Source of the DNA: Jimgerdemannia flammicorona
Lineage: Eukaryota
Assembly: GCA_003990765.1 (NCBI GenBank)
Contig: RBNJ01000008.1
Location: forward strand, 1-64,000
Length of the DNA stretch: 64,000 nucleotides
Direction: 5' to 3'
Part shown: piece after piece, positions 1 to 57,449 of the stretch
Numbering within the stretch: the first letter of the stretch is position 1
Layout of the letters: each line of letters starts with the position of its first letter
Notes under the pieces: model-generated
What the model was told of the DNA's origin: nothing
The model's input: only the letters and a program-made list of their open reading frames with translations
Database searches by the model: none
Program-made: the position numbers and the translations under genes

Positions 1-942
1 GGTTGGACTGCTGGTAGTGGTGTTACTGGTACTACTTGAGGTACTGGTGCAGAGTGTGATGGGGTTCTTTGGGTCTGTGTAAGTTGCTGGAGTAGTAGTT
101 GTGGGTCTGGAGTGAGGGCTTGATAGATAGCTGTTTGTTGCTGTGTAGGTGTATTCTGTCCTGATGGAGGTACTTCTCCTTCAGTGGTATGTCTGGGATC
201 GAATTCACTGAGATACTCCTCCTCTTCTTCAGTTTGGTTCCCGTATAATTGGGTTTGCTCAGCATCAAAGTAGACAGAATCAGTTGTATATCTGATTTCA
301 GATAGACTTAATTCAAAGTCAAGTTCAGGATCAGTATTGGTTTCAGATTCAGGTAGGGCTGTAGCAGGGCCTGCTTCAGGTTCAGGGTCAGGTAGTTGAT
401 GAAGGGTTTCTCTTGCTTCTTCTTTAAGGATATGACAGGCCTTGCTGTTCTGGAATTGGTAGTATAAGGTGGTCTTGGTCCTGGTGCAGTGAAAGTTGGT
501 AGAGTTGAGCCACTTGGCTACAGAGGCTTGGGCTTTGTGAGGAACTAAGGCTAGAAAGACTGCTGCTGGTTGTCCTAGGTCGCTCAGGTTTGTGGAGCTG
601 ACAAAACTCTTGTTGAGAAGCGTAAAGAAGGCTTCAATAAGACCTTCTTCATCTTGACTTGCTGGATGTAGTGTAAGGAGTTCGGTGAATAGGGTTTCGT
701 CTATTTGCTGGTTTAACCAGAGTACTTCTTTCTTTGAATGAAGTTTGTCTCACTTGTTGCAGGTGTGGAGGTCAAATTGTCTTTGTACATCAGGTTCAAT
801 TCTCTCCAGATTGTCAGATAGTTCAGGATAAATTCCAGTTCAGAGGTTGGGCTTTATACCAACTTGTAGGAATCTCAGAGGGGTTTGTAGCGGGGTGAGG
901 AAGCATCTTGAAGCAGAATTGGATTGTAAACTGCTGCTACCA
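1..942 (-). mobile_element. Internal 5' region (PBS + degenerate gag) of Ty3/gypsy chromovirus-family element, copy A; continues off the left edge
   Basis: Follows the LTR end on the minus strand via ACT-TGGTAGCAGCAG (tRNA-iMet-like PBS). Aligns by eye with 50170-50770, the gag region of copy B, which has RT, integrase and a chromodomain. Confidence 0.8.
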
Positions 943-945
943 AGT

Positions 946-3008
946 TGTAAGAGGATTACTTTTTAGAGTAACTGTTACATAGTTCTGGAAAGGTTTTCTG
1001 GATATTCTGGATGTTCTGGAAGACCGTTTTCTTATGATCAAGATCAATTTCATATAGAGTATGTCCTCTACACTTACTGATTTCAAGATCGGGTTGACAT
1101 CTCAACCAAAGTCCTTTTTTGGACTAGTTCTGAATGTTCAGGATTTTTCCGTATTTCAGGAAGTTCAAGAAACTAAGACCAGCTTAGTTGAATTGGTGTA
1201 TCGCTGCAGACAATACCCAATTAGGAAATTTCGCAACGGGGTTAGGAGTAGGATCTAACAGGGAGCAGATTTACTTAAGAGTGATTTGTGGGTTATTAAA
1301 TAGGTTTATTCGCTATTCATGATATTACTATACTAGGAGTAGTTGTGTAAAGGGATATTGTGGGGAAATATTCAGGAATGTTCTTGTGTGTTCGTGTCTA
1401 ACATTCTGAGGTCTGGGGGAGGGAGTATTTATACTAGTGAGGGGCTATCTAGACTATGCTGAATATGGATGTAGCACTAAGTACCTTGCTGAGTTGGAAT
1501 ACAGTCACATAGTACAAGTATGATCTGAAATGTCAAGGGATCGTTTGACTGCTGAGTCAGTTCACAGTCACATCATACAAGGCTAATCTAACTATACTAT
1601 GACTGCTAGGCTATTTATAGGTTTAGGCGCTGTCTGGATAGTCTTCAATGACATCACCATCGATTGCATCATCTCTGATGAAGTAGTCATCTAGGAATAA
1701 TGGTTTGCGGATTACTTCTCCTTGTTCGCTGAGGTAATAATACATTAGAACTTCATCTTCATCCCACAGGATAGCATCATCTGTCTTGTATGCTGGATAA
1801 GGTATTGGTGGGCAAAGGAGGGGTGCATCATTTTCACTTTCGTCGGATTCGCTGTCTGCATACCTTCTATAGGTTATGGCACTGTGAGTTGTGGGGTTAT
1901 AGTATGCTGGTGGCTGTGGTTCATGTCACTCGTACTCAGGTGGTGGAGTGGTTGGTTCGATCTGGAGGATTGTCTGAAGGTACAGGTTGTGTTCTCTAGT
2001 CTCTTCATTGTAGTTGAAGTAATCAGGGGTGAATGCAGGTTGGTATTCATGCCAGTGGTCATTGTCCCAATAAGTCTTGTATGTTGTTATGAATTGTTGT
2101 AAGTTCATCGGCAAAGTTGGTGGAGTGATCAGAGTTGGCAGAGATCCTTGGCTAGAGGTCATATCGGCATCAGAGGGATCATTGTCTTCTGCTTCATCTT
2201 CATCGAAGTGAATTATATTGTAGATATCCTTCATGGCATATCCAACTTGGAGCATTTGCAGGATTTGATCATTGGGGTGTGGGAAGGTTCTGTCTGTAGT
2301 TTTGATGTACTCGAGGTACTTGTGGTTGAGTTCTTGTATCATGTCATCGATTTGGCCATAGGACAGGGTAGCAACAATTTCGCTAGTAGTAACTTGGAGG
2401 CGGGAAATAATGGTGCTGTACTTGTAGAAGAGTTCTCAATGTTTGCGGGCGATGAGCTTCTGGTGTTGAGATATCTGAGTAATGTCTGTATCATGGTAGT
2501 GTTCAACCATATCTTCCAGGAGGTGGCTGATCTGGTAGTAGCTTGAGATTTGTCCAATTCGGTGGGCCTCGCTAAGTATGTTCAGAGCATTCCATTGGGC
2601 TTCCACAAAGTAGAGGGGTGCTAGGCTATGGATATTCATGAGGGGCAGAGGAGGTGTGGCTCGGTTGACAATGGTATTCCAAATGTTAGCGCAGATATGG
2701 TTGTAGATCTCAGTGGTCATGTTTGTGTGTTTGGAAGTTGTGGTTGTTGTTTGTTTTGGTTCTCTGATTTGACGCGTCTTGGTGCTCGGTATATATACAT
2801 TTGATCCTGATTGGTAAGATTCCATTTATATAAATCTTGTGTTCTGTGACTTTGTATTGACTCAGCTTTGTGCGCTATGACTTCGGTTTGACTTAGCTTT
2901 GTGATCAAGCAGGTGATTTCCAGATTTGTTCAGAGGTCGCGTGTGATTTCAGTGGCTTGTTTAGAGGATGACATGTAATTTCAGTGGCTTGGAGGTTGTG
3001 CGCTTACA
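946..3008 (-). repeat. 5' LTR (~2.06 kb) of chromovirus-family element copy A
   Basis: Termini TGTAAG...CTTACA; homologous over its full length to 40354-42377 and 47151-49190; PBS adjacent; TATA-like TATAAATA at ~1425-1432 on the minus strand. Confidence 0.9.
1623..2720 (-). pseudogene. LTR(U3)-embedded orphan ORF, 365 aa when two TGA codons are read as CGA
   Basis: ORF-track fragments 2436-2825 and 1926-2342 and the segment 1623-1925 are all in one frame (MTTEIYNHIC...IEDYPDSA*). The only interruptions are TGA at 2436 and 1926. The same 1098 nt ATG-to-TAA span occurs at 47417-48514. Confidence 0.75.
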
Positions 3009-4909
3009 TAGCCCTCATGCCCTTCAGCCTATGAGGTTCTGCCAGAGCAGCATTCACAGCTACAACCCATGCAGGAAATGATGCTGATGCTATACTGACA
3101 GTACAGAAGACCTGGCTCTGAAATACATATTATATAGATGAGATCAAGTAAGCCCTGAAGGATCAGCTCAATACAATATGCCAAGGAATGAGTGAGGACC
3201 CAAATACATTCTATATCAGAATTCAATATAAGATAGTCCTTACAGATTATGCTGCTGCTATCTGAGATCAAGTAGCCAAAGCAATCTTCATGAAAGGAGT
3301 CCATCCAGAAATAGCCATGGCTATCTGCTCATCACTAGTGATTCTGGATCTGCCACAAAAGATCACCTATGCTCAGTGATACTAGATAGCCAGACATCCA
3401 CAAGACCATACAATGGAGAGAGTTACAGGAGTCAGAATTAAGACACTTAAGTCAACCAGTGTGATCCCCACCACAATGATCAATTGAAACACACCTCAGC
3501 CCAAAGCTACAGAGCAGTAAAAGAACAGTAACCCTTTGGAGGAACTTACCAAGAGGTTCGCAGAAATGACTGCCCACTTGGGGGATGTAGTAAAGGAGAT
3601 CAGAAGAAGAGACCACTGCTCTGTCCAGAAGTTTGCCACTATCTCAGACAAGAAGAAAGACACCTACTATACTTTTAGAGAAGAAGACCACTACTCTTAT
3701 GAATGTATGAGCAAAACTAAGTATAAGGCTCAACCAAGCAATGTTATATAAAACAAGGAGCAGGCCAATACAATTACCTTCAAGGAAATTGGAGATTCTG
3801 ACGAAGAAAAATGGGAGGCCTATCCTACTCAGACTACCAAGAAGGATATTTGCAAGGAACCCTACAAGAGACCTCCAGGAAGACCCAAGAAGAATCCAGT
3901 AGAAAAGCAGATAGAAACAGCCACTGAAAGCCAAGCTGAAGAGATGGACCAAGATATGGAGCTGGAATAAGCAATTCAAGATATTATCTGAGGAACTACC
4001 CCAGCCAGTGAAGGAGAAAAAGAAAAGAAACTTTGCAAGACCAAGACTTTCAAGTACAATATCTTCAAGGACTTTAGTCAATAAAAAGTCAATGCAACCT
4101 TTAGTCAACTTACAGAAATCCCAACATTCAGACAACAAATGAGGTTCAGACTTGCCGAAACAACCAAGGAGTAAGAATGGAAGATAACCGAGGCCAATAA
4201 CATTCAAGAGGACTCAGGAGAAGAAAGTGAAGACAATCACAAAACCTCCGCCTATGCTATCTACCAGATCGAGGACTGAGTCTTTGAAGCCATCATCGAT
4301 ATGAGAGCAGGAGAATGTCTCATCACTAAGAAAGCAGTAGACTGCCTAGGCTGAGAGATAGAAGAAGCCACCAAATTGGTATTTGTTATAGCTGATGGAA
4401 CATGAGCAATATCTCTGGGAAAGATCCAAAATGTATCTATCAAGTTTAGAGAAGCCACCATCCCAGTAGATGTCATCGTCATCAATATAACTAACTATGA
4501 TATCCTCATTAGCAATCAATGGCTTCACAAAGCCAAGGCAATGATCGATCTCAATGCACAGAAGATGCAAATCATCTACTGGGGAAAGAAGATCAGAATT
4601 CTCATTAATGTCCACAAAGGAGTCTGTCTGGAAATGAAGGAAGAGCAAGAAGAAGAAGCCTACATGGTTACCATGAAGAAAGGAAAAGATAAGCAGTGGA
4701 CAGAGGAAGAATGGTACAAAAGAATTATAGATAGATATGTCCCACTAGGAAGGTGCCCCCATGGTGAAAGAATGTACTGCATCCAGCACTTGGATTGCTG
4801 CTACTCCTGCATCATTGAAGTGAAAAAGATCTCCAACAAGTCAAAGAAGAACCAGGAGGAATCAGAAGATGGACCACCAGAGCTATTGAATGACAGTAAT
4901 GATGAAGAA

Positions 4910-5330
4910 GACATCACAGTCAAGATACGAAGAATCCACCCTGATGTAGTCTTGCTACAGTACAAATCAGAGAATGTAGCAGGAATGGACCTATCTACCA
5001 CAATACACACAATCCTCAAACTGCAAACTACTACTATGCTGGGAACAGAAATCGAAGCAACCATCCTACCAAATCATATTGGAATTCTCAAGACAAGGAG
5101 CAGCTTGGTGAAAAGCAAAATATCCATAGAAGGAGGAGTCATTGATTCAGACTATACAGGAGAAATCTTCCTCCTTGCCAGAAATCATAATCCAACAATC
5201 CTATTTGAAGTAAGGAAGAAGGATCAGCTGGTACAAATGCTCATCCTACCTGTCCTTAACCCAAGAATCAAGAAAGTCACAAACATCAGACAAACTCAGC
5301 AAGGAAGAGCTGGATTTGGCTCTATAGGAA
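4910..5330 (+). pseudogene. dUTPase domain within the retrotransposon pol, between protease and RT
   Basis: Trimeric dUTPase motifs AGMDL, TRSSL, GVIDSDYTGEI, DQLVQML and GRAGFGSIG in ORF 4541-5818. Confidence 0.9.
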
Positions 5331-6842
5331 GAGGAGTCCTTGCAGTAACCAAGATTACAGAATTGGAGCACAAGAAGGAGGAAAGCCAAGATAAACACAC
5401 TTATATAATCGGAAAGAACTTTCTTCTCAGGAAGGAGTTGCAGAACCTCTTGCATACATTTGAAGATGTACTGGTCATAGATTTCAAGGACATCAAGACC
5501 AAGAAACCCTTATACTATCATGATGTCAATACTGGAGATGTGAAACCAATCTATCAAAAAGCCCGCCCTATTCCACCAGCATACAGAGAATGGCTCAAGA
5601 CTGAAATTAAGGAAATGGAGGAATCCAGTATCATCAAGGAAGCCAGCAGCCCTTGGTCTTCACCTATTGTCCTTATACCAAAGAAAGGAAGCCAACTAGG
5701 AGAATTTGCACTAAGACTCTGCATAGACTATAGAAGACTCAACGAAGTCATAGAGAAGGATAGACAACTATTGCCCAATATTGGTGACATTCTTATCATG
5801 CTGGAGAATGAATCATGATTTTACACCACTCTGGATCTGTTCTTAGGATTCTACCAAATTGGTCTTACACCTGAAGCCAGAAAAAGATCAGCCTTCATCA
5901 CTCCTAATGGAACCTATGTCTACCTCCACATGCCTTTTGGAATGTGCAATATACTAGCAAGCTTTTAGTGAATGATGAATAGCAACTTCAGGAATGTTAT
6001 GGAAAAATGGATGATGGTATATGTGGATGATGTGATCATCTTCAGCCAAACAGCCAAGGAGCACTTGGAATATATCAAGGAAATCCTCAGAAGGCTTTGC
6101 AAAAATGGCCTCTACATCAAGCCCAAGAAATGCAAATTTGGAGAAGAAGAAATTGCATACCTCAGACACATCATCAACTATGAAGGAACATACACAGATT
6201 CCACAAAGATCAAGGCAGTAGCAGTATACCCAGTACCTACCAGTATTACTGAAGCCCGAGCCTTCATGGGACTAGCATCCTATTACAGGAGATTTATTTA
6301 AAGATTCTCCCACATTGCTAGCCCTATCTACAATCTGTTCAGAAAAGAGGTCAAGTTCCAGTGGACACAACAACAGCAACTAGCCTTTGATGAACTTAAG
6401 ATCAGGCTGACCCAGGTCTCAATCTTGAGAAGATCTGACTGAATATGAGAATTTATTCTACAGACAGATACCAGTACAATGGGACTTGGAGCTGTTCTTG
6501 TACAGAAGAAGAATGGTGCTGAGTATGTAGTAGCCTATCTTAGCCGAGGTACTCACAGAGCGGAGCAGTCCTATGAGTCATACAAGCTAGAATGTCTTGC
6601 AGTCATCTGGGCTGTAGAGAAGTTCCACTATTACCTGGTAGGAAGATACTTCACCATCCAGACAGACTACTCAGCACTCACCTGGTTGCTCACCACCAGT
6701 AAACCCAAAGGAATCTATGCCTGATGGATTATGAAGCTACAAGCATATGATGCCACAATCACTCACTACCCCAGAAGAACCAATGCCAATACCAATGCCC
6801 TCTCATGGATACTCTGAAGGACCCCACCCCTACAAAATCACT

Positions 6843-8036
6843 ATGAATAGGGAGCTGTACTACGGAATCATCAGCTATCTGGGGCAGCAAAAGATACCCC
6901 TGCATCTGGAAGAATGGACAAAAACAATTATTAATTAGACATGGAAACAATTTGAAACTGATAGAGAAATACTCAAGAAAGGATAACAATTAGTCATCCC
7001 CAAGTACCGAAAGAATCAAGTAATGAAAGAAGTATATGAACAAGGCTATGTAGGAGGAACAAATATATATGACAAAGCAAGAAGAACCATGTAGTGGCCT
7101 GGAATGGAAGAAGATATCAGACAATTTATCAGAATCTGTGACAAATGTCAGAAACAGAAACAAGACTAATGAAACCAGGCCCCAGGATCAGCACACATAG
7201 AACCAGTACCATTTGCCTATATAGCAATGGATGTAATTAGCCCCCTACCCTTGACCCTGACTGGTAACTGATATATCATTGTCATCGTAGACCTTTTTAC
7301 GAAGTGGATAGAAGCAGGACCTCTCAAGGAAGCCAATGCACAGTCAATCACCGATTTCTTCTACAAGGAAATCATCTGCTGGTTCAAGACCCCAACACAA
7401 GTAACTATAGATAGAGGAACAGAATTTGTGAACCAGCTCTTTGAGGTTCTCTATAAGAAGTACAAGATCCAGTATATTCAGACCACAGCCTATCACCCCC
7501 AAGGAAATGGACAAGCAGAAAGAACTAACAAGACCCTCAAGAATGTTATCGCTAAGATCTGTGATAACTATGAAAACTGGGATCACTATCTGCCAATAGC
7601 ATTATCTGCTCTCCGAGATATCAGATCACAAAGTACCCACTTTACCCCTCAGGAGATGCTATTCGGAGAAGAAAGTTTTAGTGGAAGTTTGTTAGCAAAT
7701 AATAATGCAGTCTGGAAGCATGTAGACATGGAGATATGGAGATTATATCAAATTAGGAAAAAGGCAGAGGATTACATAATCAAGGTACAGGCACTACAAC
7801 AGAGCAATGCAGAAAAGATCCACAAGCCCCTGGAGATTATTAAGATAGGAGATGAAGTCCTGGTGTACTGGAATATGGTAGAAGCTTCTTGGTCATAAAA
7901 ACTGGAGCCCAAGTGGGAAGGACCTTATCTGGTGCAAGATATAAAAGGGACTACTTTCTGACTATGAAAGCCCTTAGGCACAATAATCCCCACCACCATT
8001 CACCGAAACCAACTCAAGAAATATCATAGCCAGTAA
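6843..8036 (+). pseudogene. Integrase ORF of the dUTPase gypsy element, in a different frame from gag-pol
   Basis: ATG at 6843 (MNRELYYGIISYL), decayed HHCC (CDKC), DDE core and WEGPY; one frame to TAA at 8034-8036 with internal stops. Confidence 0.8.
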
Positions 8037-8049
8037 CAAAAGTACTGCG

Positions 8050-8529
8050 ATGGCACTCAAGATTACTAGTGCTGCCCAAAGAGCCATCAAGAGACAATGG
8101 TATACCACTGAGCCTCTGACCATAGAAGAGTCTTATGATAGTATCCAAAGTATTGTACAGACTCATCTCTCTCAAATCTCATACTTCAAGGCCTATCAGT
8201 ATCAAAATGAATTTCAAGAGTACTTCAAACTTGGCCAAGTACTCAACCAAGACCCAGAAATGACCAAAGAAAATTGGATTACAGAATGCCAGCTCTCCTA
8301 TTCTCAGATCACCATTGCTAAGAGAATTCACAAGCTATTCCGAGAGGATGAACTAGCACTAGCCCACCTGTGAGGAGTGACTCCCTCAGACTTCGACCAA
8401 GTCAGGTGACATCATTGGGAAACAGTAATGCAACAAATTATATAGTATAAGACCATACAGACCATTGAAGCCTGAGAGTTTGAATAGATACTTCAGGGAC
8501 AAGATCATCTATTCAGGAGGAAGTTGTGA
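8050..8529 (+). pseudogene. Accessory ORF3 of the gypsy element between integrase and PPT, unknown function
   Basis: ATG 13 nt after the integrase stop; 107 aa open, and the frame continues through TGA/TAG (probable CGA/CAG decay) towards the LTR. Confidence 0.55.
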
Positions 8530-8991
8530 TAGTATAGCCAGATTTAGAAGAAGGAAATAGGGAACAGACACTTGATTGCACCCAGTCCCAAAGTAGTATA
8601 GCCACATAGTTAGCAGTCCTCAATTTCGCCACTTGCTAAATATTTCGCAAAGTGCGAGATTGAGCTTCTCGATATAGTATAGCATTTCACAACTAGTGAA
8701 ATATTTCACAAAGTGTTAAATGACTCATAAACTTAGCCACATAACTCAGTAACCATCTCATAGCTAGCAAACTTGTATAAATAACCCAGTATCTTCAAGT
8801 GAATAAACCTCAGATCAAAATAGTTCAAAGCAAAGAGATAGCAAAGGAACTAGTAAACCTGTAGGCAGATATACTTCAAACTCACCTACCCTCCCTACAA
8901 CTTCAAGAGACTCTGCGAGAGTCAGAAGAGTCAAGTTTTCAAGATATAGAAATCCGATGTACTTTCAAGAGTAAGTATCTGCTATATTACA
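8525..8991 (+). repeat. 3' LTR of the dUTPase gypsy element (~467 bp)
   Basis: Purine tract AGGAGGAAG immediately upstream; TGTGATA...TATTACA termini; internal TATAAATA and AATAAA. Confidence 0.7.

Positions 8992-9032: not shown

Positions 9033-9103
<71 letters not shown>
9033..9103 (+). repeat. Poly(A) tract, ~71 nt
   Basis: Seen directly; homopolymer length may be assembly-uncertain. Confidence 0.9.
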
Positions 9104-9105
<2 letters not shown>

Positions 9106-10560
9106 GTATAGAGAGCTAGTATAATAAGAATACTAAATAAAACACCAAACCTTTCTCTGAGATACATTAGATGAGTAGTGTCAGAAAAGAGCAATGAGTA
9201 GTATTGATAAAATAAGCTACTAGATGATATAATGATTAATTATAATATTTAAATGACATTATAATCAAGATATCATATAAGTAGCTTATAGTAACTTACA
9301 GCTTGAATATTAAAAATAAAAATAAAAATAAAAATAAAACCCTTATTAAATATTAACAGTTTTAAGCTGATATGTCTTATTATTATTATAAAACAATTTA
9401 AAATAAATATATTTATTATTAATAAAGTTAGAATTTTTTTTTTTTTTTTGTAAGCAAATTTGTCTACATTATAGTCTAAGAGATAGTATATATTATGAGC
9501 TTCATTTGTGAGTTTGACAATATAAATGTGATCTTGCATAATGCTCAGTAATCATTTATGGTATCATAATCTTGAATTAGTACTTGTGGCTTTATATATT
9601 CTGCTAAGTTATATTCATTGAAAAGATTTATTATATGAAATACTCAAATAGTATAGTCTTTCTTATTAAAGATCAGGATGGACCTCTTAACTATATTTAT
9701 GCTAATAATAAAACTATATTTCTCATACCTGTTGAGGTTATACCTATAGTTGGTAGAATACTTGTAATTGGTACATGTATATCTATTTCTATGCTTATAT
9801 TACTAGACTGATCTTCTGATATTTTTAGTATATATATAGTATATTTAAAGAGATGTTTTACTATAGCTGCTTAGTACTAATAGACTTATAACCTTTGTTA
9901 TAAAGAGAGGACAATTTTATTAAAGTTATATAGGTTATATATTTCTCATATTATTAATGAATAATGTAAATCTGATAGAATGGCATAAGATCATGTGCTG
10001 ATATATTGAGTTACTATCTCAATAAACTGTTGAAATTCTTTTAGCATTCTGATCTTATATAACTGTTAGAAATTATTCCAGTATTCTGATCTTATACAAC
10101 TAATTATATAGATACTTAAATTTATACTTATAACCAAAGTTTTTTATATTTAAATATTTTATTTATTTAATTATTAAAATTTATATTTAGTTTTATAACT
10201 TAGCAACTATTGAATTATATTTTATATAAAATCTCTCTCATTTCTTTTGAAATAAAGTCAGTAGTCAAATATTTAAACACTTAAACATTTAAGTCTCCAA
10301 CTACTCAAGAGTATAGAAGTTTCAGTTCTCTACTCAATTCCAAGCAAACATATCCAAAAGACATAGAATAGTTTAAAGATAAGAAGTTTGAGGACTATAA
10401 GACCTTGGAAAGATACTCCAATAGAACTTGCTTATAAGAAACTTATAGTTGGTCTAAAAAATACACCTTGAAGAGAATCTGATATACTTGAAGAACTTAG
10501 CACCCCCTATGTGACATTATATATAATTTTGAATAGAAAAATAACCTTTTTATATTTAAA
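9104..10560. other. AT-rich, CpG-depleted relic of an unclassified repeat
   Basis: Composition like the eroded TEs; no recognisable protein motif. Confidence 0.4.
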
Positions 10561-19201: not shown

Positions 19202-25653
<6,452 letters not shown>

Positions 25654-34863: not shown

Positions 34864-35257
34864 ATGGCGGAACGACAGAAACGAGTTTTGCAAGAGAAGA
34901 ATGAGCGTTTACTTCTCGAGATGATCTCCCTCTCAGGCAACAATCAGTGTGCAGACTGTGGCGCCAAAGGTTTGTAAGACAGCTGTTGTCTAACTTCGTG
35001 CCAATTCGCTTTAACTTTGCACGTTCCCGGAAACGTCCGTTCCCACTGTCTCATTGTCTTTCTTTCTTTGCTTTCGTAGGACCCCGCTGGGCATCCTTCA
35101 ATCTTGGAGTCTTTCTCTGTATTCGATGTGGCGGCCTTCACAGGAAGATGGGCACTCACATTTCGAAGGTCAAGTCTGTGACACTAGATTCATGGACACC
35201 TGAGCAAATCGAGGTGTGTAAATGAACTAACTATATCATCGAAACCGAATAAACCAA

Positions 35258-35296
<39 letters not shown>

Positions 35297-36378
35297 TGTT
35301 TTCCCATTATTAATTGAAGCAAGAAGCATGTTTGCATACTTGTCAATGATTTTTTTTCACTCCAATCCTTAACCGCCTCTCTCTTTTCTTTTCTTTTCTT
35401 TTTTTCCTTCGTCATCGCTTCCCAGATGATGAAACAAGGAGGGAATTCAAAAGCTAACGCTAAATATAATCCGCACCCAGAGCAGCACCCGCTGCCTCTT
35501 GCAGAAGATGATAGGTTCAAATCGCTATTATACCCTATTTCACGCTACGCCTAAATCTTCTGGTTAGAAAAAAGTTATAAGGGAGACGATCATACTAACA
35601 AGAACTGATTTGTATAATTTTATTCAGCGGGATGGAGCGATACATTCGAAGTAAATGGGAGAAGAAGGCGTTTATGGAACGTGAGGAGCGTGAAAAAGAA
35701 AGTGTAAGTCGAGTTTTAATCCTTGATACCGGATTGAGGACGTTGTCAACGAGTCCATCTCTAAAAACTTCTGTCATGCAGTTATAATACCCGCTCGTTC
35801 ATTCCCTCATACTCTCCCAATCTGTTCATAAATTTGTAGCCAAAACCGCAATCATCACGTCAACTACAAGTTGTCTCCGCACCTGTTCGCTCGTCTTCTG
35901 TTCCCGTCGTCTACCAAGGTTCAAATCACGGTCCCGCGCTGCAACGCCTTCGCGACATGGGCTTCCACGACCAGGATCGCAACCGTCAGGTGTTGACGCA
36001 AACTCAGGGCGATATTGACGCCGCCGCCGAAATTCTTCTCCGCCTGCCCGGAGCACGCGCTCCCAGCAGCCAACCATCCTCGGCGCAAGTCTCCGACGAG
36101 CACAAACTCACTCAGCTCTGGAACATGGGTTTCCAGGATGATGCGAAAAGCCGCGAGGCGCTACGTCGTACGGGTGGTAATGTGGATGTGGCTGCGGCGA
36201 TTCTCCTTGAGGAGCGGAAGAATAATCAACACCGCCTCTCGCCCGCCTCGACTCCCAGCCCGACGCGCGATACTTTCGATCGCGCAGAAAATAGTGGGCG
36301 TACGCAGACAAACCAAGAGAGGCAGAACCACAAATTGTCTGGTGCACAGCCATCTCTACAACAACAGCAACAGCAGCA

Positions 36379-36445
<67 letters not shown>

Positions 36446-40353: not shown

Positions 40354-42377
40354 TGTAAGAGAGTTACTTTATTAGAATACTGTTACATAGTTCTGAAAGG
40401 GTTTTCTGGAAGTTCTGGATATTCTGAAAGACTGTTTTCTTTTAGGTCAAGATCAATTTTATATGGAGTACATTCTCTATACTTATTGATTGCAAGATTG
40501 ATCAGATTGACATCTCAACTAAAGTTCTTTTTCAGACTAGTTCTAGATGTTCAGGATTTTTCATATTTCAGAAAGTTTAAAAAACTAAGACTAGCTTAGT
40601 TGAATTGGTGTATCACTATAGACAATACTCAATTAGGAAATTTTGAGATTTAGTTAGGAGTGGAATCTAATATAGTATAGATTTACTTAAAAGTAGTTTG
40701 TAGATTATTAAATAGATTTATTCACTATTTATAATATTGTTATACTAGAAGTAGTATATAAAGAAATATTGTGGAGAAGTGTTCAGAAGTTCTTATCTAT
40801 ATTTCTGTCTATTTATATCTGAGTTTCTGAGGTCTGGAGGAGTGGATATTTATATGTACTAATGGAAGGCTATCTAAACTATACTAAATATAGATATAGT
40901 ACTTAAGTCAGAATACAGTCATATAGTATAAGTATGAACTGATATATCAAGAAGTCATCTAATTGCTAAGTCAGTATACAGTTATATAGTATAAGATTAA
41001 TTTAACTATATTAATAACTGCTAAGCTATCTATAGATTTAGATACTATCTGGATATTCTTCAATGAGGTCACCATTGATAATATTATCTCTAATAAAGTA
41101 GTTATCTAAGAAGAGTAGTTCTTGAATGATGTCTTTCTATTCATTTATATAGTAATAGATTGAAACTATATTACTATCTTATAGGATAGTATCATCTGTC
41201 TCATATACTAGATAGGGTATTGGTAGACAGAGAAGGAGTATATTATTTTTGCTTTCATCAGATTTGCTATTAATATATCTTTGATAGATTATGATACTAT
41301 ATATTATAAAGTTATAGTATACTAGTAGCTATGGTTTATTTCATTCATACTCAAGAGGTGAGATTATTAGTTTGATCTTGAGAGTTGTTGAAGATATAGA
41401 TTATATTCTCTGATCTCTTCATTGTAGTTGAAGTAATCAGACATAAATATAAGTTAGTACTTATGCCAGTGATCATTATTTCAATAGGTCTCATAGATAG
41501 TTATGAACTATTATAAGTTTATTAGTAAGGTTAGTAGAGTGATTGAGATTGGTAGAAATTCTTAGCTGGAGATCATATCAGTATCAGAGAGATTATTATC
41601 TTCTACTTTATTATTATTAAACTGAATTATATTATAAATATCTTTCATAGTACATATATCTAACTTAGAGCATTTGCAGAATGTGATTATTGGGGTATGG
41701 AAAGGGTCTATTTGTAGTTTAGATATACTTGATATACATACTTATAGTTGAGTTCTTATACTATATTATCAATTTGATTATAAGATAAAGTAATAACTAT
41801 TTCAACAGTAGTAACTCAGAAGTAAGAAATAAAGATACTATATTTATAAAAGAGTTCTCAGTATTTACAAGCAATGAGTTTCTAATATTGGAACATTTTG
41901 GTAATATCTATATTATAGTGATAATTGATCATATCTTCCAGGAGACAGCTGATCTGATAGTAGTTTGAGATTTGTCTAATTTAGTAGACCTTACTAAATA
42001 TATTCAGAGTATTCTATTGGGCTTTTACAAAATAGAAGAGTGCTAGACTATGGATATTCATAAGGGGTAGAGAAGCTATAGCTCAGTTGATAATAGTATT
42101 CTAAATATCGGTATAGATATAATTATAGATTTCAGTAGTTATGTTTAGTATATATTTGAGAGTTGTAGTTATTTGTTTAGTTTGTTATAGTTCTCTATTT
42201 TGATATATCTATATATTCAGTATATATGTTTTTGATCCTAATTAGTAATATTTAATTTTTGTAAATCTTGTATTCTATAACTTTAAGTTGACTCAGCTTC
42301 ATAATCTTGTAAATGATTTCCAAATTTATTCTGAGAGTGATGCATAATTTTGATAGCTTGGAGGTTGCATACTTACA
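40354..42377 (-). repeat. 3' LTR of chromovirus-family element copy B
   Basis: Homologous to 946-3008; TGTAAG/CTTACA ends; polypurine tract AAGAAAGAGAGAG directly upstream on the minus strand (~42379-42391). Confidence 0.9.
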
Positions 42378-45300
42378 ACTCTCTCTTTCTTAGCTTTTGA
42401 TGTTCTCATTGAGATCTTCTAATTTGGTCTAGTATTGTTATACTATTTAGATGATCAAAAGTCCAGTAATGTCTATTTTTCTCAAAAAGTAGTATACTTA
42501 TAGTACAGTTACCTAATATATTAGATTTATATGTTAAAGAGTTATGTGTTTAATACTATATATCAGAAGTAATTTTAATATCATTTACTACTGAAGAATT
42601 TCCTCTAAGAAATCTTTTTAAATATCTATATCTTATTTCCTATCAATGGTATGAGAAGAATAGGCTGGCTTTCAGTTTTTTTATTTTTTAAAGAGTCAGT
42701 ATTCCTTTTGTCTTAACTTGTTGAGTTCTTAATTATTCATAATAATTATAAGAGTACTTTTAATAATGTCCAGGAGAGGTAATATATGGTATAAGACTGA
42801 TAGATATTAGAGTATTTGAGTTTTAGTTATTAAAAGAATTATATTCTTGAACTAAGTCAGTGATATTCTGAAGATTAGTTTTGAGTTCCCATATTACATT
42901 ATAGATCAGATAACCTTTCCATTTGATAAGGTATTCTGGATAGTTCTTATAGTCATATTTGTTTAGGATTTGTTTGACTTTGTATTCTTTCTAATTATTA
43001 ATGATAACAGATACTGATAGTTTTGTAATTCAATTTGAGAATAGCTCATCATCATTTCATTATATTACTTGAGATGTTGAATATTGAAGATAGGATGAAT
43101 CTTGATAATATCTAGTAGTACCAATTTATAGGAAATTGGAGAGACTTGTACAATGACTTTAAATGGTTTAATGAATTTACTATTTAGCTTTATAGAGAGT
43201 CTATACTTAAGGTTGTCAACTTAGTATCCTTAGATATCTAGTAGAACTTTTTCTCAAATATTAAAGTTTCTTCTCAGCAATACTGATTAATATACTATGG
43301 TTATTATTCTTAAGTTCAAGATAAATTATCAATTATAATCTAGCTTAAGTTGTATATTCAGAGCAAGAATTCTTCAATAGCTTCAATAGTAGAGAGTTCA
43401 TCAGTAATTCTGATAAGAGTCAGAAAAGTATGCAGATTTTATTTTATATTAGTGAAGAACAGAATCATTCTAAGAGAGGCTTGCTTGCTATTCTTATAGA
43501 TAAACTTGATTGCAGTAAGATATTTATGTCAATTATCTTATCTATAGAAAATATAGTTACTTAGTATTTGCTCTAGAGTTCAGTTCATCCTTTTAGTTTA
43601 GCTATTAGTTTTAGGATAAAAGTCTATAGATAGTATAAGTTTTATCCCAAAGTATACATATAGAGTTTTTCAAAAATAGTTGGTGAATTTCAGATCTCAA
43701 TTACTAATAATGATCTTGGAAAGATCATAATAGTAGAAGATATTATCAAATAAGAGTATAGTGATTTCCAGTACTATTATAGTTATAGTAGTAGATATAA
43801 AGTGAGCTTATTTGCTGAGATAGTCTATAAGACAGCAATTAGATTCTTCTCATTCTTGGTTTAGAGTAGTTGTACAATGAAGTCTATAGAGATTTATTTC
43901 CAATTAGTAGATAATACTGAGATAGAGTAGAGTAGTCTAGGTTTTACTAGAGTTGAGAACTTGTTGTATTAATAGATATTATAAAAAGTAATATAGATCT
44001 TTAACTGATCTGCCATATAGAGTCAATAGAAGTTTTAAGAAATAACTTTATAGTATTTATCAAATCCTAAATATCTGGTCATAGGAGTATTATAATATTT
44101 AAATAGGATAGTCCTTTGGAGATTTCAATTATTAGAGATATATAATCTATCCTTATAGTAGATAATATTATTCTTATTAGTATTAATGGTACTAGAAGTA
44201 CTTGTTAATATTGTTACTACTCAGGATTTCTTAGAGTGCTCGAGCTTCTTTATCATTAGTATATCCTATGATAATTTATTCTATAATGGAGTTGGTAACT
44301 AAGGTAAGAGTTTGTATAACTTCTTTGATTAGTGGTCAGGAAATTGCATCAGTAACAATATTTTTCTTACCAGAGTGATACTGGATTTTGTAGTCAAAAT
44401 TAGTGAGGACTTTCATCTATCTGACTTACTTTTGGAAAAAAGTAGCCTGGGTCTTGATGTTAACTAATAATTTGTGGTCTGTCAATATAGTGAAGTATGC
44501 TCCTTCAAGATATGATCACTATTTGATCAGAGTATTTACAATAGCTAATATTTCCTTTTTGTGAGTTATATAGTTAATTTCAGCATCATTAAACTTATAA
44601 GAGTAGTAGACCACAGGGTGTCCTTCTTGTATGAGTATTACTCTAAGAGCTAGATCAGAGGTATCAGTAATAACTTCATATAGTAGAGCAGAATTCACTA
44701 CTTGAAGTACAGGAGTAGTTATCAAGATATCTTTCAGTACTTGAAAGGCTATATCTTATTCAGATTCCCAATTTACAAGATTGTTGAAATCTTTTTCTTA
44801 CTTTATGGTCTAGAGTTATTCTTCTTTTTTACTATACTTGGTTATTTAGATAAGGACAGTAGTGATCTTAGCAAAGTTTGTGACAAATTACTAATAATAA
44901 TTTGCTAGTTCTAGGAATGACTAAAGATCTCTCAGTTTTGGGGGTCTGGGCTATTTCTTAATTATAGAGATTTTGCTAAAGTCTACTTTGATTCTATTGA
45001 GAGTGATAATATATCTAAGAAATTGAATTTCCTTCAGAAGAAATTCACATTTGCTGAGTTTTACAAAGAGTCAGTTTTCTCAAAGTTTCAGTAGTACTAG
45101 TTCAAGATATTTGAGATATTTCTCCAGAGTTTTGCTGAAGACTAGTATATTATCAATATAGATAATAATAAATTTGTCTAGGTATAGATATAGGATAGTA
45201 TTCATCAGTATCTGAAAAATTACAAGAGTACTAGTTAAGTCAAAGGGTATAACTAAGAACTTGAAATATCTATAACAAGTTCAGAAGGCAGTTTTGTAGA

Positions 45301-47150
45301 TATCTTCTTCTTTTATGGCAATTTGCCAGTAGTCATTATATAGATCAAAAAAGCTCATAAATTGTGAGTTAGTAAGTCTATCAAATATTTCATTGATTTG
45401 AGATAGTGAGTAATAGTTCTTGATAGTCTATTCATTGAGATCATTATAATCAATATACATTTGTAGGTCTTCTTCTTTCTTGATAACAAAGAGAACTGGT
45501 ATACTATATAGTAATATACTAGGTCTAATAAATCCTTATTCTAGAAATTCATCAATTTCTTTTTTAAATACATCAATTTCTTTAGAAGATATGTGGTAGA
45601 TTGACTTGAAGGTTGGCTTAGCATCTGAAATGGTCTTAATGGTGTGGTCTACTACTTATTTAGGTAATGGACCTTTTGGAAGTTTTTTTGAGAATATATC
45701 TCAGAATTTCTGAAGTAAGGGTCTAATATGACTATCAACTTTGGAAAAGTCTTCTTCAAGATTCTTGAGTTCTCCTTTGGGTGGCTATATGAAGATAGTA
45801 AAGAGAGGGCATTTCTTGGCCAATTTCTTTAGTTGTAGTTTATTGATATGGGTGATCTTTGGGTCTAAGTTATTAGAACTGAGTGGGTCTCTTTTATCTT
45901 GGAGTTTGAAATTGTGACATCCTTTCTTAATGGTCAGAAAATGATTTACTCAATCAATCATAAGATTTTCTTATTTTAACCATAGAGTTCCAGAGATGAT
46001 TTCATTGTTAGAAAGTAGTATAATTTGAAGTATAATATATACTTAGTAGTTGTCAATTCTGAAGAGTAGATTGCAGACTTTCTTATTGACAATATATGAG
46101 ATTCCATTAGTTATAACAACTCTTGAGTTTGTTGTACTAGAGAGGTCAGGACCTTGAGTCTATTGGCTGTTTCTTTATTGATGAAATTGCTTAAAGCACT
46201 TAATCTTAACTTAATAAAAACTTAGAGAGTAAGCAGTTTGTCTAATCTAATAGTAGTGATTTCAGTTATAAGAGAATTCTTTCTATTAGTTCTCCTTTGG
46301 GCCAGTTTATTGATACATATAAGAGAAACAATTATCAATCATTCAGAAAGAGTATATTCTAATACCATAGGAGTATTGATCACTTGGTACAAATCTATCT
46401 TCAATTTTCTTATAGAATTATTTCTTCTTATTTATAGTAGATTGGGCTGGAGCCTTGTTTGATAAGCCAAATCCTTTAGATCTTTGAATAGTAGATAGTA
46501 GTTCAGGAACTTCTTTAACTATTAGAGTTAACTCAATTTTCTTGAATAATATCTATATTATATAAAACTCAATAGAGATCTTGAATGGTATTCAACTATG
46601 GTTTCAGATGAGAATAATGATTTCACCTATATAATCTATTTCTCCTTCTACTGAGAGTCCTTTTAATGCTAGACTACTGTAACAGCATATTCTTCTAATA
46701 TATTCTTTAGAAATTTGAATGCTAATCTCTATATAGACTTATTTGACTTCTTGGTTAGAAACTATAGCTTCTTTAGCTACATATAGATCATATCTAGCTG
46801 CTTTTTGACTTTCTTTAATTGGGGCCATAGCAGTTGTTCTCAGCTTGACAAAGTTCAGTATCTTAGTGATCAGATTGTTGAGGTGATACAGAATAGTAAC
46901 AGTTGCTTATATTATTATTCAGAGTTTTTAGTTAGGGCAGATACTGGCTATATATCCTGTCTTTCAGTAATAGAAGTATACTCTGCTTCTTCAGAGTTTA
47001 TTTCTTTCTCCTTCAGTAAGTCTCTTAAAGATACTTGGCTGAATGGGTTTAGAATTTTGAGATATTTAAGAGATGGATATAGAGAGAGCTCAGGATGCTT
47101 TATGTTTGGGTTCTTTTTTTTGGGTCCAAGATTTTTTCTTATTGTTGAAT

Positions 47151-49190
47151 TATAAGTGCATAACCTCTAAGCTACTAAAATCACATATCACCTCTAAACA
47201 AATCTGGAAATCACATACAAGATCATGAAGCTGAGTCAAACTAAAGTTATAGAGTACAAAGTTGAGTAAACTTGAAGTCACAGAACATAAGATTTATACA
47301 AATAGAATCTTATCAATCAGGACCAAATATATATATACTAAGTACTTAGATACATCAAAATAGAAAACTACAACAAACCAAATAAATAATTATAACTCTT
47401 GAACATATATACAAACATGACCACTGAGATTTACAACTATATCTGGGCTGATATTTAGAATGTCATTGTCAACTGAGTCACCCCTCCTCTACTCCTTATG
47501 AATATCCATAGCCTAGTACCTCTTTACTTTGTAGAAGCCTGATAGAATACCCTGAATATACTTAGTAAAGCCTACTGAATTGGACAAATCTCAAGCTACT
47601 ACCAGATTAGCTATCTCCTAAAAGATATAGTTGAATACTACTATAATATAGACATTATTCAAATATCTCAATACCAGAAACTCATTACCTGCAAACACTG
47701 AGAACTCTTCTATGAGTATAGTACCTTTATTTTCTATCTCTAAGTTACTACTACTGAAATGATTGCCACTCTGTCCTATAGCCAAATTGATAATATAGTA
47801 TAAGAACTCAACTATAAGTATATTGAGTATATTCAAACTATAAACAGAACCTTCCTATATCCTGATGACCACATTCTATAAATACTCCAAGTTGGATATA
47901 CCATGAAGGATATCTACAATATAATTTAGTTCAATAATGATAAAGCAGAAGATAATGATCTCTCTAATACTAATATGATCTTTAGCTAAGGATCTCTACC
48001 AGCCCTAATCACTCTACCAATCTTGCTGATGAACTTACAATAGTTTATAATCACCTATAAGACCTATTGGGATAATGATCACTAGTATAAGTATCAATCT
48101 ATATTCATATTTAATTACTTCAACTATAATGAAGAGACCAAAGAATATAATTTATACCTCTAGACAACTTTTGAGATTGAACTAACAACTTCACTACCCA
48201 AGTATGAGTGATATAAATAACAGCCACTAGCTTATTACAATCCAGCAACACATAGTACCATAACCTATAGAAGATATACAGATAGCAAATTTGATAAAAG
48301 CAAAGATAATATATTCTTTCTTTGCCCACTAACTCTATATTCAGTATATGAGACAGATAATGCTATCTTATAAGATAATAATGAGGTCTCAATGTATTAT
48401 TATCTGAGTGAATAGAGAGAAGTGATCTGAGAACCACTCTTTCTAGATGACTACTTCATCAGAGATGATGTCATTAATAGTAATGTCATTGAAAATTACT
48501 CAGATAGTATCTAAATCTATAGATAGCTTAGCAGTTATTAGTATAGTTAGATTAGTCTTGTACAATATAACTGTATACTAACTCAGTAGTCAGACAATCT
48601 CTTGATATGTCAGTTCACACTTATACTATATGACTGCATTCTGACTTAGCAAGACACTAAGTATTATATTCATATCTAGTATAGTTCAGATAGTCTTCTA
48701 TTAGTATAAATACCCTCTCTCTCAGACCTCAGAATCTCAGACTTGAACAATCTAAATACAACTTTTGAAAACTTTCCCACAATATCTCTTCACACAACTA
48801 CTCCTAGTATAGTAATATCATGAATAGTAAATAAACCTATTTAATAACCCACAAATTACTCTTAAGTAAATCTGTACTCTATTTGGTCTCACTCTTAACT
48901 ATATCATAAAATTTCCTAATTAGATATTGTCTGCAGCAATATACCAATTCAACTAAGCTGGTCTTAGTTTCTTAAACTTCTTGAAATATGAAAAATCCTG
49001 AATATCCAGAACTAGTCTGAATAAGGACTTTAATTGAGATATTAACCTGATCTTGAAATCAATAAGTATAAAGGATGTACTCTATGAAATTGATCTTGAC
49101 CTAAAGAAAATAGTCTCCCAGAATACCCAGAACTTTCAGAAAACTCTTTCAGAACTATGTAATAGTACTTTTATAAGTAACTCTCTTATA
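47151..49190 (+). mobile_element. Solo LTR of the same family inserted antisense into copy B gag, with 5-bp TSD TGAAT
   Basis: Full-length LTR homology; termini eroded to TATAAG...CTTATA; TGAAT at 47146-47150 and 49191-49195. Confidence 0.92.
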
Positions 49191-50770
49191 TGAATTGTCT
49201 TTAAGGCAGAATTAGTTCAGCAGTTAGGATTTACTTAACTATAGTCTTGATTTTTACCAGATATCATTATTGGTAATTATAACTAACTAGATATCCTTGT
49301 TCTTGGATCTTTCTTGTGAACCATTCTGATAGTATATCAAATAAATAGTCTGCTCTTATACTATTTTATGCTTCATCATTAGCAATATATCTTAGGCCAA
49401 TAGTATTCAGGAGTAACTTAAGTTTTATATAGAAGGTTTCAAATTTCTCCTTACTATATATATCAAATTTGAGATTGCAGAGTTTTACTTGGGATTTGGT
49501 AATTAGAGTTTTACTATGATATTGAGTAATTATAAGTTATTTGAGCTCAGGGGTTGTAGAGTGGTCTCTATATTCTGGAGTATTATTTGCTATATTTTGA
49601 GCAATAACTACAGATTGAGTATCCTATGTGAGGAGTTTTTCAGGAAGAGTTTACTACTATTCTTCAGCAAGTCCTTGGAAGAATGTAACAACTTGATGAA
49701 TATAGACTATAGTAGTAGCAAAAAGTTATTTGATAGTGTGGTCTTAGTTGTTTGTTAAGAGGTAGTCAGTAACTTACTTATTGCTCTATTGATTGGCTTT
49801 AAAATTGATATCAACTATACTAATAAAGCTTTGGACTTTCTGTACAATACCATTGAAGGTAAATAGGTTCAGACTTTTTATAAGTTGGGTCTGTTTGGCT
49901 AAGATAGTAATAGTTACTACCATTATGACTATCTGGGCTATAAGGTCTAGAATCTATTAGTTTGCCATATTGTTTACTAAAAATAGTTATACTATTAGTA
50001 ATAGTATTACTGATATGACTTGAGATACTGATACAGAGTGTAATGGTATTCTTTGAGTCTATATAAGTTGCTAAAGTAACTATTGTTGGTCTGGTATAAG
50101 AGCTTGATAAATAACTATCTATTGCTCTATAGGTGTATTTTGTCCTGAGGGAGATATGTCTTCTTTGGTAGTATATATATCTAGGATTGAATTCAGTGAG
50201 ATACTCCTCCTTCTCTTTGCTTAGGTTCTCTTGTAGTTGAGTTTATTCAATATTAAAGTAGATAGTATCAGTTATATATTGGATTTCAGATAAGCTTAAT
50301 TCAAAATCTAGTTCTGGTTCAGTGTTAGCTTTGGTTTTAGATAGAGTTATTATAGGGCCTGCTTCTAGTTTAGAGTTAGGTTATTGATGAAGAGTTTCTC
50401 TTACTTCTTTTTTAAGAATATAATGGGTCTTACAATTCTGAAAATAGTAATATAAGGCAATCTTGGTCCTGGTATGGTGATAGTCAGTAAAGTTGAGCTA
50501 CTTAGCTACAGAGACTTGTGCTTTATAAGAAACTTAGGCTAGAAAGATAGCTGCTAGTTGTCCTAGATCACTCAGATTTATAGAGCTAACAAAATTCTTA
50601 TTGAGAAAAGTAAAGAAGACTTCAATAAGACCTTCTTTGTCTTGACTTGCATAGTGTAGAGTAAGGAGTTCAGTATATAGAGTTTTATCTATCTGCTGAT
50701 TTAATTAGAGTACTTCTTTTTATAGATGAAGCCTGTCTCACTTATTGTAGATATAGAGGTCAAATTGTCC

Positions 50771-53435: not shown

Positions 53436-53942
53436 TAGGTAAAATAGAGGAAGAAGAAGACCCAGTGGGAGCCAAGAGAGCAAACCCAGAGCCAGTGTCA
53501 AAGTGAATAGAAGATATGTGGAAAGGTGTGTATAAGAGGGATGAACAAAGAACATAACTGAAAATGTATCAGCCATTTATTGCTACATAAAAATGAGGTC
53601 CTTATATACAAAATATGATATTCCAAAAGAGAGGACATGCCACAACTTGAGGCAAACTGAATTAGGAACCACATGACTACCAGAGATAGGTGGAGATAAA
53701 GGGGGAGCCAATCCCAGTTGCAGGATAAAAATCACAAATAAACACAAACAAAACAAATCCAAATCGAGATTAAAAAACATCTGCAGACCCTGGAGAGGTG
53801 AGTGTGAGTGAGGGGTGAGACCGAAATGGAGTGAGCCACAGTGAGCCCAAGCAAAGCAAGAGGCTGAAGACAGCAGAGGAGAGTGGAGTAAGACCGAGAC
53901 CCTGGAGTAAGTGCAAGACTCCAGAGGGAGCAAGGATGTTTT

Positions 53943-55850: not shown

Positions 55851-55957
55851 AAGGTGAAGGGAGAATAATATGAGAAACTACTCAAGACACACCAGAAGTG
55901 ATGACAGAATCTGAGAAGGGACAGGGACACTGGGGGAGAACTACACCAGGGGGAAGT

Positions 55958-57058: not shown

Positions 57059-57449
57059 GAGCTCATATGAGAACAGAGGCCCTGAGGGCAGGCAGTATAG
57101 CAGAGGAAGAAGAAGGCCCAGCAGGAGCCAAGAGAGTGAACCCAGAGCCAGTGTCAAAGTGAATGGAAGATATGTGGAAAGGCATATATAAGGGAAATGA
57201 ATAAAGAACATAACTGAAAATGTATCAGCTGTTTATTGCTATATAAAAACAAGGTCCTTATATATAAAATATGACATCCCAAAAGGGAGGACATGCCATA
57301 ACTCAGGGCGAACTGAATTAGGAATCAATGACTGCTGAAGATAGGTGGAGATAAAGGGGGAGCCAATCCCAGTTACAGGATAAAAATCACAAACAAACAC
57401 AAATAAAACAAATCCAAATTGAGATTAAAAAACATCTGCAGACCCTGGA

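Follow-up and report, generated by a model that had tools for sequence, protein, structure and literature searches.

A probable protein-coding gene inside the long terminal repeat of a fungal dUTPase-bearing chromovirus

A 64,000-nt stretch of the Jimgerdemannia flammicorona genome (positions 1 to 64,000 of contig RBNJ01000008.1, assembly GCA_003990765.1; hereafter the window) contains three copies of a ~2-kb repeat with the ends TGTAAG...CTTACA, and each copy carries the same 365-codon open reading frame (ORF) or its remnant. The repeat is a true chromovirus long terminal repeat (LTR), present once as a 5' LTR (copy A), once as a 3' LTR (copy C), and once as a solo LTR (copy B). The best explanation for the ORF, and one we regard as probable, is that it is a genuine accessory protein gene, placed in the sense direction inside the 2.06-kb LTR of a fungal dUTPase-bearing chromovirus. 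The narrower claim of an LTR-borne protein gene that is functional now, or was so recently, appears highly likely. The three LTR copies, which belong to or interrupt two elements described below (elements 1 and 2), and the frame in each of them are as follows; P0006 and P0003 are related protein fragments found in database searches.

946..3008, minus strand: LTR copy A, 2063 nt, GC content 0.42, little hypermutation; 5' LTR of element 1.
40354..42377, minus strand: LTR copy C, direct relative to A, GC content 0.27, hypermutated; 3' LTR of element 2.
47151..49190, plus strand: LTR copy B, inverted; a solo LTR nested in element 2 in the opposite orientation.
1623..2720, minus strand: ORF in copy A, 365 codons plus TAA, wholly inside the LTR, with two TGAs.
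2436..2438, minus strand: in-frame TGA at codon 95 of copy A, where P0006 has Arg; probably CGA>TGA.
1926..1928, minus strand: in-frame TGA at codon 265 of copy A, where P0003 has Gln.
47417..48514, plus strand: ORF remnant in copy B, 19 internal stops, no indel relative to A.
41038..42142, minus strand: ORF remnant in copy C, 19 internal stops, ATG changed to ATA, and length changes of +8 nt and -1 nt.

Self-BLAST and alignment of the repeat ends recovered copies A, B, and C, in keeping with the original prediction of an LTR that occurs three times. That prediction also described the copy-A frame as interrupted only by two TGAs, and these lie at codons 95 and 265. Stops number 6–32 in each of the five remaining frames of these 1098 nt, and two or fewer stops occurred in 0 of 5000 first-order Markov resamples (mean 21.8, minimum 6). 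The openness of the ORF is thus far beyond chance. The solo-LTR span at 47417–48514 had been called identical to copy A; it has the same length, but only 857 of 1098 positions match (78.1%), and it has 19 internal stops. Identity between A and C is 73.4% in the ORF, and identities over the whole LTR are 78.9% for A–B and 75.3% for A–C. A further claim, that every copy carries the gene, stands for the frame, which is recognizable in A, B, and C, but not for an intact gene, which is present in none. All three copies are dead, B and C by C-to-T hypermutation resembling repeat-induced point mutation (RIP) and A by its two TGAs. Because solo LTR B is hypermutated, it is no working cassette, contrary to the idea that the gene survives there autonomously. 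Searches with tblastn detected no further copy of the LTR protein in the window.

The composition of the copies indicates that B and C were hypermutated in a RIP-like manner and that A underwent mainly CpG decay. Changes from A to B comprise 300 G>A or C>T substitutions versus 71 in the reverse direction, and CpA is the leading context (139 in B, 171 in C). GC contents are 0.42 (A), 0.30 (B), and 0.27 (C), the observed/expected ratio of CpG is 0.47 in A, 0.0 in B, and 0.03 in C compared with 0.99 in host genes, and that of TpA is raised (1.16–1.19 vs 0.73). The pattern of RIP is therefore present in its transition bias, dinucleotide preference, lowered GC, raised TpA, and sparing of single-copy genes. 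Because RIP yields only transitions, we used transversions and indels for tests of coding selection.

First, transversions between A and B fall 4/2/20 on codon positions 1/2/3 of the ORF (chi-square p=1.3e-5), and 11/9/10 on the equivalent phases of the non-ORF LTR. The A–C comparison gave 11/2/21 in the ORF and 11/11/11 elsewhere in the LTR, and the B–C comparison gave 7/2/13 and 9/8/6. In codons 266–365, past both TGAs, the A–B counts are 0/1/10. Second, 14 of the 26 A–B transversions in the ORF are synonymous, compared with 14.2% expected at random (p=2e-6), and codon positions 1 and 2 together carry 6 transversions in 732 sites compared with 30 in 928 sites of non-coding LTR (p=6e-4). Rough values of omega from transversions are 0.14 (A–B), 0.24 (A–C), and 0.21 (B–C). 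The original prediction had named dN/dS below 1 as a check, and these rough values of 0.14–0.24 among the three copies lie below it. Third, no A–B indel occurs in the 1098 columns of the ORF, and nine events occur in the 979 other LTR columns. In contigs from four sequencing runs of two studies, 2 of the 12 indel rows listed are within the ORF, whose share of the aligned stretch is 46%. Of the variant letters in these contigs, 19 among the 40 listed of 532 rows lie in the ORF, at codon positions 6/3/10 by hand count, a distribution that is only suggestive; the two TGA sites are not among these 40.

A phmmer search of 1.84 billion representative proteins returned two real relatives, P0006 and P0003, and three low-complexity rows. 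P0006 (128 aa) begins MTTEIYN, is 84% identical to residues 1–128 of the LTR protein, and has Arg at codon 95. P0003 (247 aa) is 63% identical and 82% positive over residues 115–364, ends ...YPDSI, and has Gln at codon 265; its alignment contains two in-frame gaps of 2 aa. The Met start of P0006 and the C-terminus of P0003 confirm the start and end of the ORF. Word-index protein searches gave only these same two sequences, each cluster having one member, and scans of metagenome, viral, and genome contigs confirmed no relatives at the DNA level. We compared P0006 and P0003 at the protein level and not by classical dN/dS. Of the 89 mismatches with P0003, 47 are BLOSUM-positive, compared with 29–31% in a neutral simulation in which 0 of 600 runs reached the observed value. 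No new stops separate the two sequences when 4–5 are expected under the same neutral model, a comparison subject to ascertainment. Taken together, the transversion periodicity, synonymous excess, lack of indels, and conservative changes relative to P0003 indicate that the ORF was under purifying selection on the protein while the LTR lineages diverged.

These results bear directly on two other explanations. In one, there is no gene, and the frame either is open by accident or reflects constraint on LTR DNA or RNA, such as promoter, enhancer, or packaging sequences. The broken state of every local copy and a predicted protein that AlphaFold2 largely fails to fold fit this idea, but against it stand the transversion periodicity confined to the ORF phase, the synonymous excess, the scarcity of indels, the conservative changes relative to P0003, the conserved start and stop, and the absence of comparably open frames among the 5000 resamples. 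We disfavour this explanation as very improbable. In the other, a cellular gene or gene fragment was captured by transduction and is carried along in the LTR to no benefit of the element. LTR retrotransposons do take up host sequence, and the part of PMC7264820 that deals with such captures gives one or a few copies as their usual number. Against capture, no cellular homolog was detected by phmmer in the 1.84 billion representatives or in Pfam, the PDB, or the ESM Atlas, and the frame is present in all three diverged LTR copies and was under purifying selection during their divergence. Capture appears very unlikely.

The two TGAs of copy A are most simply explained by recurrent CGA>TGA changes at hypermutable CpGs, and less readily by a defect already present in the ancestor. 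This reading is based upon the Arg of P0006 and the Gln of P0003 at these sites, on the persistence of the codon-position bias of substitutions downstream of the TGAs, and on codons 20 and 54, the two CGA codons left in A, which read TGA/TGA and TGA/TAA, respectively, in B/C. Two other accounts of the TGAs were rejected. Introns that hide them are excluded by P0006 and P0003, which read through both sites in frame, and reassignment of TGA is excluded by host ORFs, which run for 504–681 codons without a stop when read with the standard code.

The element to which the LTR belongs reads on the minus strand, and the ORF is in sense orientation to it. The original prediction had placed the ORF in this orientation, and it is now backed by a site resembling a primer-binding site (PBS), by the open frame that follows it, by the strand of the pol gene of element 2, and by the polypurine tract (PPT), all of which are on the minus strand.

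931..942, minus strand: PBS-like TGGTAGCAGCAG, 3 nt past the terminal CA of LTR A; a typical primer-binding start.
3..920, minus strand: internal start of element 1, open frame P0004, with two TGAs, no Met, and no Pfam family, running off the window.
42379..42397, minus strand: polypurine tract, adjoining LTR C.
42398..47145, minus strand: internal region of element 2, with dUTPase, reverse transcriptase (RT), RNase H, integrase SH3, and chromodomain; heavily hypermutated (Pfam, read-through frames).
49196..50770, minus strand: gag-side part of element 2, beyond nested solo LTR B.

An antisense ORF, which the plus-strand gag-pol at 3009–8035 might suggest, was considered and rejected based upon the PBS, PPT, and orientation of element 2; this gag-pol belongs to another element (element 3, below). 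Further hallmarks of an LTR retrotransposon are spread over the three copies, which together provide TG..CA ends, a target-site duplication (TSD), the PBS, and the PPT; no complete single element with both LTRs is present in the window. Copy B is flanked by the 5-bp TSD TGAAT at 47146–47150 and 49191–49195 and is therefore a solo LTR. The flanks of copy A show no TSD (CAAGT vs TAGCC). One soil-metagenome contig preserves an un-mutated junction, AGAAGGGGAGAG-T-TGTAAG, in which the PPT is joined to the LTR end. No complement of the PBS occurs on the sense strand of the LTR, as would be found in self-priming of the Tf1 type, and the 64-kb window has no tRNA genes.

In element 2, Pfam domains read towards LTR C in the order dUTPase (1.2e-13), RVT_1 (4.5e-16), RT_RNaseH_2 (5.7e-20), SH3_Tf2-1 (4.1e-9), and Chromo (4.9e-6). 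This pol order with a C-terminal chromodomain is that of a chromovirus. The integrase core was not detected by Pfam in this hypermutated copy. Element 2 is split by nested solo LTR B and truncated at ~50770; its 5' LTR and PBS are missing, as homology to element 1 ends there. Positions 14–781 of element 1 recur at 49998–50769 with 77.6% identity over 772 nt. An excerpt of PMC2864245 describes fungal chromodomain Ty3/gypsy elements with a dUTPase between protease and RT (Postia PosPlaTy3-5, Phanerochaete, and Tuber Tmt1), and a dUTPase is likewise present in elements 2 and 3 of the window. By the descriptions in that excerpt, the LTR-owning element is an ordinary fungal dUTPase-bearing chromovirus. 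The excerpt makes no mention of long LTRs or LTR length; a figure legend in it labels an additional ORF of unknown function.

The LTR family is abundant and polymorphic where it is present. Contigs at least 80% alike to the LTR A stretch (700–3100) number 3374, 490, 420, and 426 in runs X1–X4, respectively, which come from two studies; X1 and X2 are soil metagenomes, X3 and X4 are labelled 'organism A', and the best run contained only 0.21 of the sampled words. The contigs are 80–100% alike, with variants that are mostly transitions in both directions, and 392 contigs in X1 are at least 99% alike to the LTR A stretch.

How the gene might be expressed is suggested by short signals around the ORF.

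2790..2797, minus strand: TATATATA, 70 nt 5' of the ATG, kept in A, B, and C; candidate ORF promoter.
1426..1433, minus strand: TATAAATA, ~190 nt 3' of the stop, kept in all copies; candidate genomic-RNA promoter.
1612..1619, minus strand: TATAAATA, 4 nt past the stop, only in copy A (TATAGATA in B and C).
1305..1310, minus strand: AATAAA, in the best-conserved block of the LTR, kept in all copies; candidate poly(A) signal at the border of the repeat (R) and unique 5' (U5) regions.

The original prediction of a TATA-type box ~70 bp before the ATG corresponds to TATATATA at 2797–2790. Its second TATA, after the stop, has two counterparts, TATAAATA at 1433–1426 in all copies and at 1619–1612 in A only, where it was probably created by a G>A change. 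The 288 nt before the ATG in copy A contain short repeats and a TGAGTCA-type site, and TATATATA is followed by a CA-rich leader ending CAAAC-ATG. There is also an in-frame upstream ATG at 2825, but indels distinguish the copies between the TATA and the ATG, which puts the start of the frame at 2720 and leaves the ATG at 2825 outside the gene. AATAAA lies ~120 nt past the conserved TATAAATA and is followed by ~360 nt to the terminal CA.

From these signals, the unique 3' region (U3) would extend from ~3008 to ~1400 and contain the gene with its own promoter, R would span ~1400–1285, and U5 ~1285–946. Transcription of the ORF mRNA would be driven by the conserved TATATATA, which lies 70 nt before the ATG, and would end at the LTR's AATAAA, which would also serve the element. 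Genomic RNA would start downstream of the gene, at the conserved TATAAATA (1433–1426). In that case every intact LTR would act as a cassette of its own that expresses a 42.6-kDa acidic protein of the cytosol or nucleus. We give roughly even chances to a U3 location of the gene combined with production of its own mRNA by each LTR.

The gene could instead be real and have no independent U3 cassette, being the first cistron in a long R/U5 leader or being translated from a spliced subgenomic RNA that reaches into the 3' LTR. MMTV (mouse mammary tumour virus) sag, for example, can be translated from a spliced RNA of this type. A solo LTR would then not express the gene on its own terms. The evidence for selection fits such an arrangement equally well, and the sole conserved TATA upstream of the ORF (2797–2790) could equally be the element's promoter. 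The spacing of the signals argues in the other direction. The canonical TATAAATA, present in all copies ~120 nt upstream of AATAAA, has the usual U3/R/U5 spacing, and a leader that starts at 2760 would give an R of ~1.5 kb in which a 5' poly(A) signal 1.4 kb from the cap is ignored. A long R with an ignored 5' poly(A) signal is uncommon among retroelements. We consider a leader or spliced RNA unlikely.

The predicted LTR protein has a mass of 42.6 kDa and a pI of 4.4, with 60 acidic and 19 basic residues, 30 Tyr, 28 Pro, and a GRAVY (grand average of hydropathicity) of -0.6. Its C half has a pI of 4.05 and contains 22 Pro and 18 Tyr in 195 aa. No long hydrophobic segment or anchor is evident in the protein. 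In an AlphaFold2 model made from a 3-row alignment, the N-terminal 170 residues form helices and the rest is mostly coil, with a mean pLDDT (predicted local distance difference test) of 32. The helical-looking N half of the original prediction is thus matched by a low-confidence model, and its acidic, Pro/Tyr-rich C half by composition. The C half is well conserved with P0003 and includes the blocks LITPPTLP, FTPDYFNYNE, PYPAYK, and YFIRDD. In most instances the residue after Trp is Asn, Asp, or Gly, a pattern that we take to be reminiscent of Argonaute-hook motifs. In Pfam, nothing scored at E<=10 except two rows at the level of chance, the best E value in a PDB profile search was 0.43, and ESM Atlas searches with P0003 and P0006 gave TM scores of at most 0.30 and feature matches below the recognition bar. 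Together with phmmer, these searches returned no known family, as the original prediction had it.

The protein would consist of a helical N domain and a conserved C domain rich in Tyr, Trp, Pro, and acidic residues. The C domain would bind host or element proteins, and in doing so would promote expression of the element or blunt genome defence. Action in trans for the element through such contacts, whether as an expression helper or in counter-defence, is the likeliest role but a guess, possible but doubtful. Somewhat less likely is the fuller proposal of a chromovirus with a retrovirus-style gene entirely in U3 under its own promoter, in which every LTR and solo LTR is a dispersible cassette and the protein acts in trans family-wide, for example against silencing or hypermutation.

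Several observations weigh against a functional accessory gene with this anatomy. First, no copy in the window is intact, and both TGAs of A are common to B and C. By a rough estimate, the odds of independent triple hits at both TGA sites are only a few percent, and the source copy of the subfamily may therefore already have been defective. Second, there are only two relatives, both of them protein fragments from contigs of ~1 kb, and the openness of P0003 is partly ascertainment, as protein databases admit only open frames. Third, the U3 placement and separate promoter, plausible as they are, are read from motifs (the TATA boxes and AATAAA), and an upstream TATATAAA and the post-stop TATAAATA of A are not conserved. 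Finally, structure prediction was poor (pLDDT 32; 0.39 for the Atlas model of P0003) and backs no specific biochemical role, and the PPxY motifs of A (PPEY and PPAY) are absent from P0003.

The usual view of LTRs is that they control expression and do not code for protein. Genes located in U3 have been described in a few retroviruses, with MMTV sag and, in part, nef and bel/bet as examples. Like the LTR ORF, MMTV sag is a frame of ~320–365 codons inside U3 that is carried by both LTRs, and the ORF in the window shares its placement wholly within the LTR in all three copies, with 266–288 nt upstream and ~677 nt downstream. Sag, however, is a membrane-anchored superantigen of a vertebrate retrovirus, whereas the LTR protein is acidic and belongs to a fungal chromovirus without env. 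No relationship to Sag or Nef was found, as there was no Pfam match above noise, the best PDB E value was 0.43, and the model was too poor for a fold search. The nef gene of HIV/SIV (human and simian immunodeficiency viruses) and bel/bet of foamy viruses are accessory genes that overlap U3, in this respect like the LTR ORF. Their overlap with the LTR is only partial and they use spliced viral RNAs, whereas here the whole frame, preceded by 288 nt, lies in the LTR and is also present in a solo LTR. Additional ORFs (aORFs) of plant LTR retrotransposons, as described in a portion of PMC7264820, are family-specific, of unknown function, and present in all or most copies, and some have their own promoter (Grande gene23). 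The positions given there are all internal, either before gag or in the stretch from pol to the 3' LTR, in sense or antisense, in contrast to the position of the present ORF inside the LTR. Full-text literature searches found no LTR-internal protein gene in a fungal retrotransposon and returned only papers on the MMTV 'LTR ORF' and texts that use the words in other senses, a result that leaves absence from print unproven.

A selection-constrained gene of 365 codons in a fungal LTR would extend a retroviral trick to plain retrotransposons and would place an orphan protein family in a well-defined genetic setting. Such a gene would also raise the testable question of what an element gains from a gene that is duplicated with each insertion and left behind in every solo LTR. 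Were the U3 cassette to prove true, a gene of this type would be on record for the first time in a retrotransposon that is not a retrovirus, and multiplying the dosage of a helper gene in this manner would be new among mobile elements. For annotation, the case is a warning that long LTRs can hide genes that are removed by repeat masking.

The frame after the PBS of element 1 (P0004) is open for ~250 codons without any Met and has no gag family in Pfam; the protein index contained no longer relatives of it. P0004 is presumably the N-terminal part of an unusual gag. The other side of LTR A abuts a third element.

3009..8035, plus strand: element 3, a different Ty3/gypsy element with protease, dUTPase, RT, RNase H, and integrase, abutting LTR A.

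Element 3 has a CpG observed/expected ratio of 0.12, and its 5' end is cut by LTR A. No chromodomain was detected in it, and self-comparison revealed no DNA similarity to element 2. After its integrase (the pol stop is near 8035), a 107-codon ORF occupies another frame at 8050–8373 on the plus strand and continues to ~8600, broken only by TGA/TAG, without a Pfam family. The frame at 8050–8600 could represent another extra ORF, not related to the first, located either downstream of pol or within the 3' LTR of element 3, no borders of which are visible in the window. Neither this ORF (P0010) nor P0004 has significant similarity to the LTR protein.

Host genes of ordinary composition occupy the part of the window between its two repeat-rich flanks and encode an RNA12/YME2-like protein, RRM and PPR proteins, a GTPase, a PAH-repeat protein, an Atg4-type peptidase, and a UBA protein. 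This gene content, like the pattern of mutation, is consistent with a fungal genome. A run of ~74 A at 9033–9106, in a stretch with a GC content of 0.30, matches a T-run at 35257–35302 and may be the tail of a non-LTR element or simple sequence. Direct repeats of ~350 nt at 53439–53794 and 57095–57449, 87–89% identical and 3.66 kb apart, bracket ORFs at 54054–55412 and 55958–57232, both on the minus strand, one with a weak RVT_1 match (E=4.7e-4). The region 53439–57449 has very strong GC and AT skew and may be another retroelement. Short-period repeats at 19722–19969 and 36358–36514, which are 82–91% alike, lie in the coding regions of the PAH-repeat and UBA proteins and are probably a common low-complexity coding repeat.

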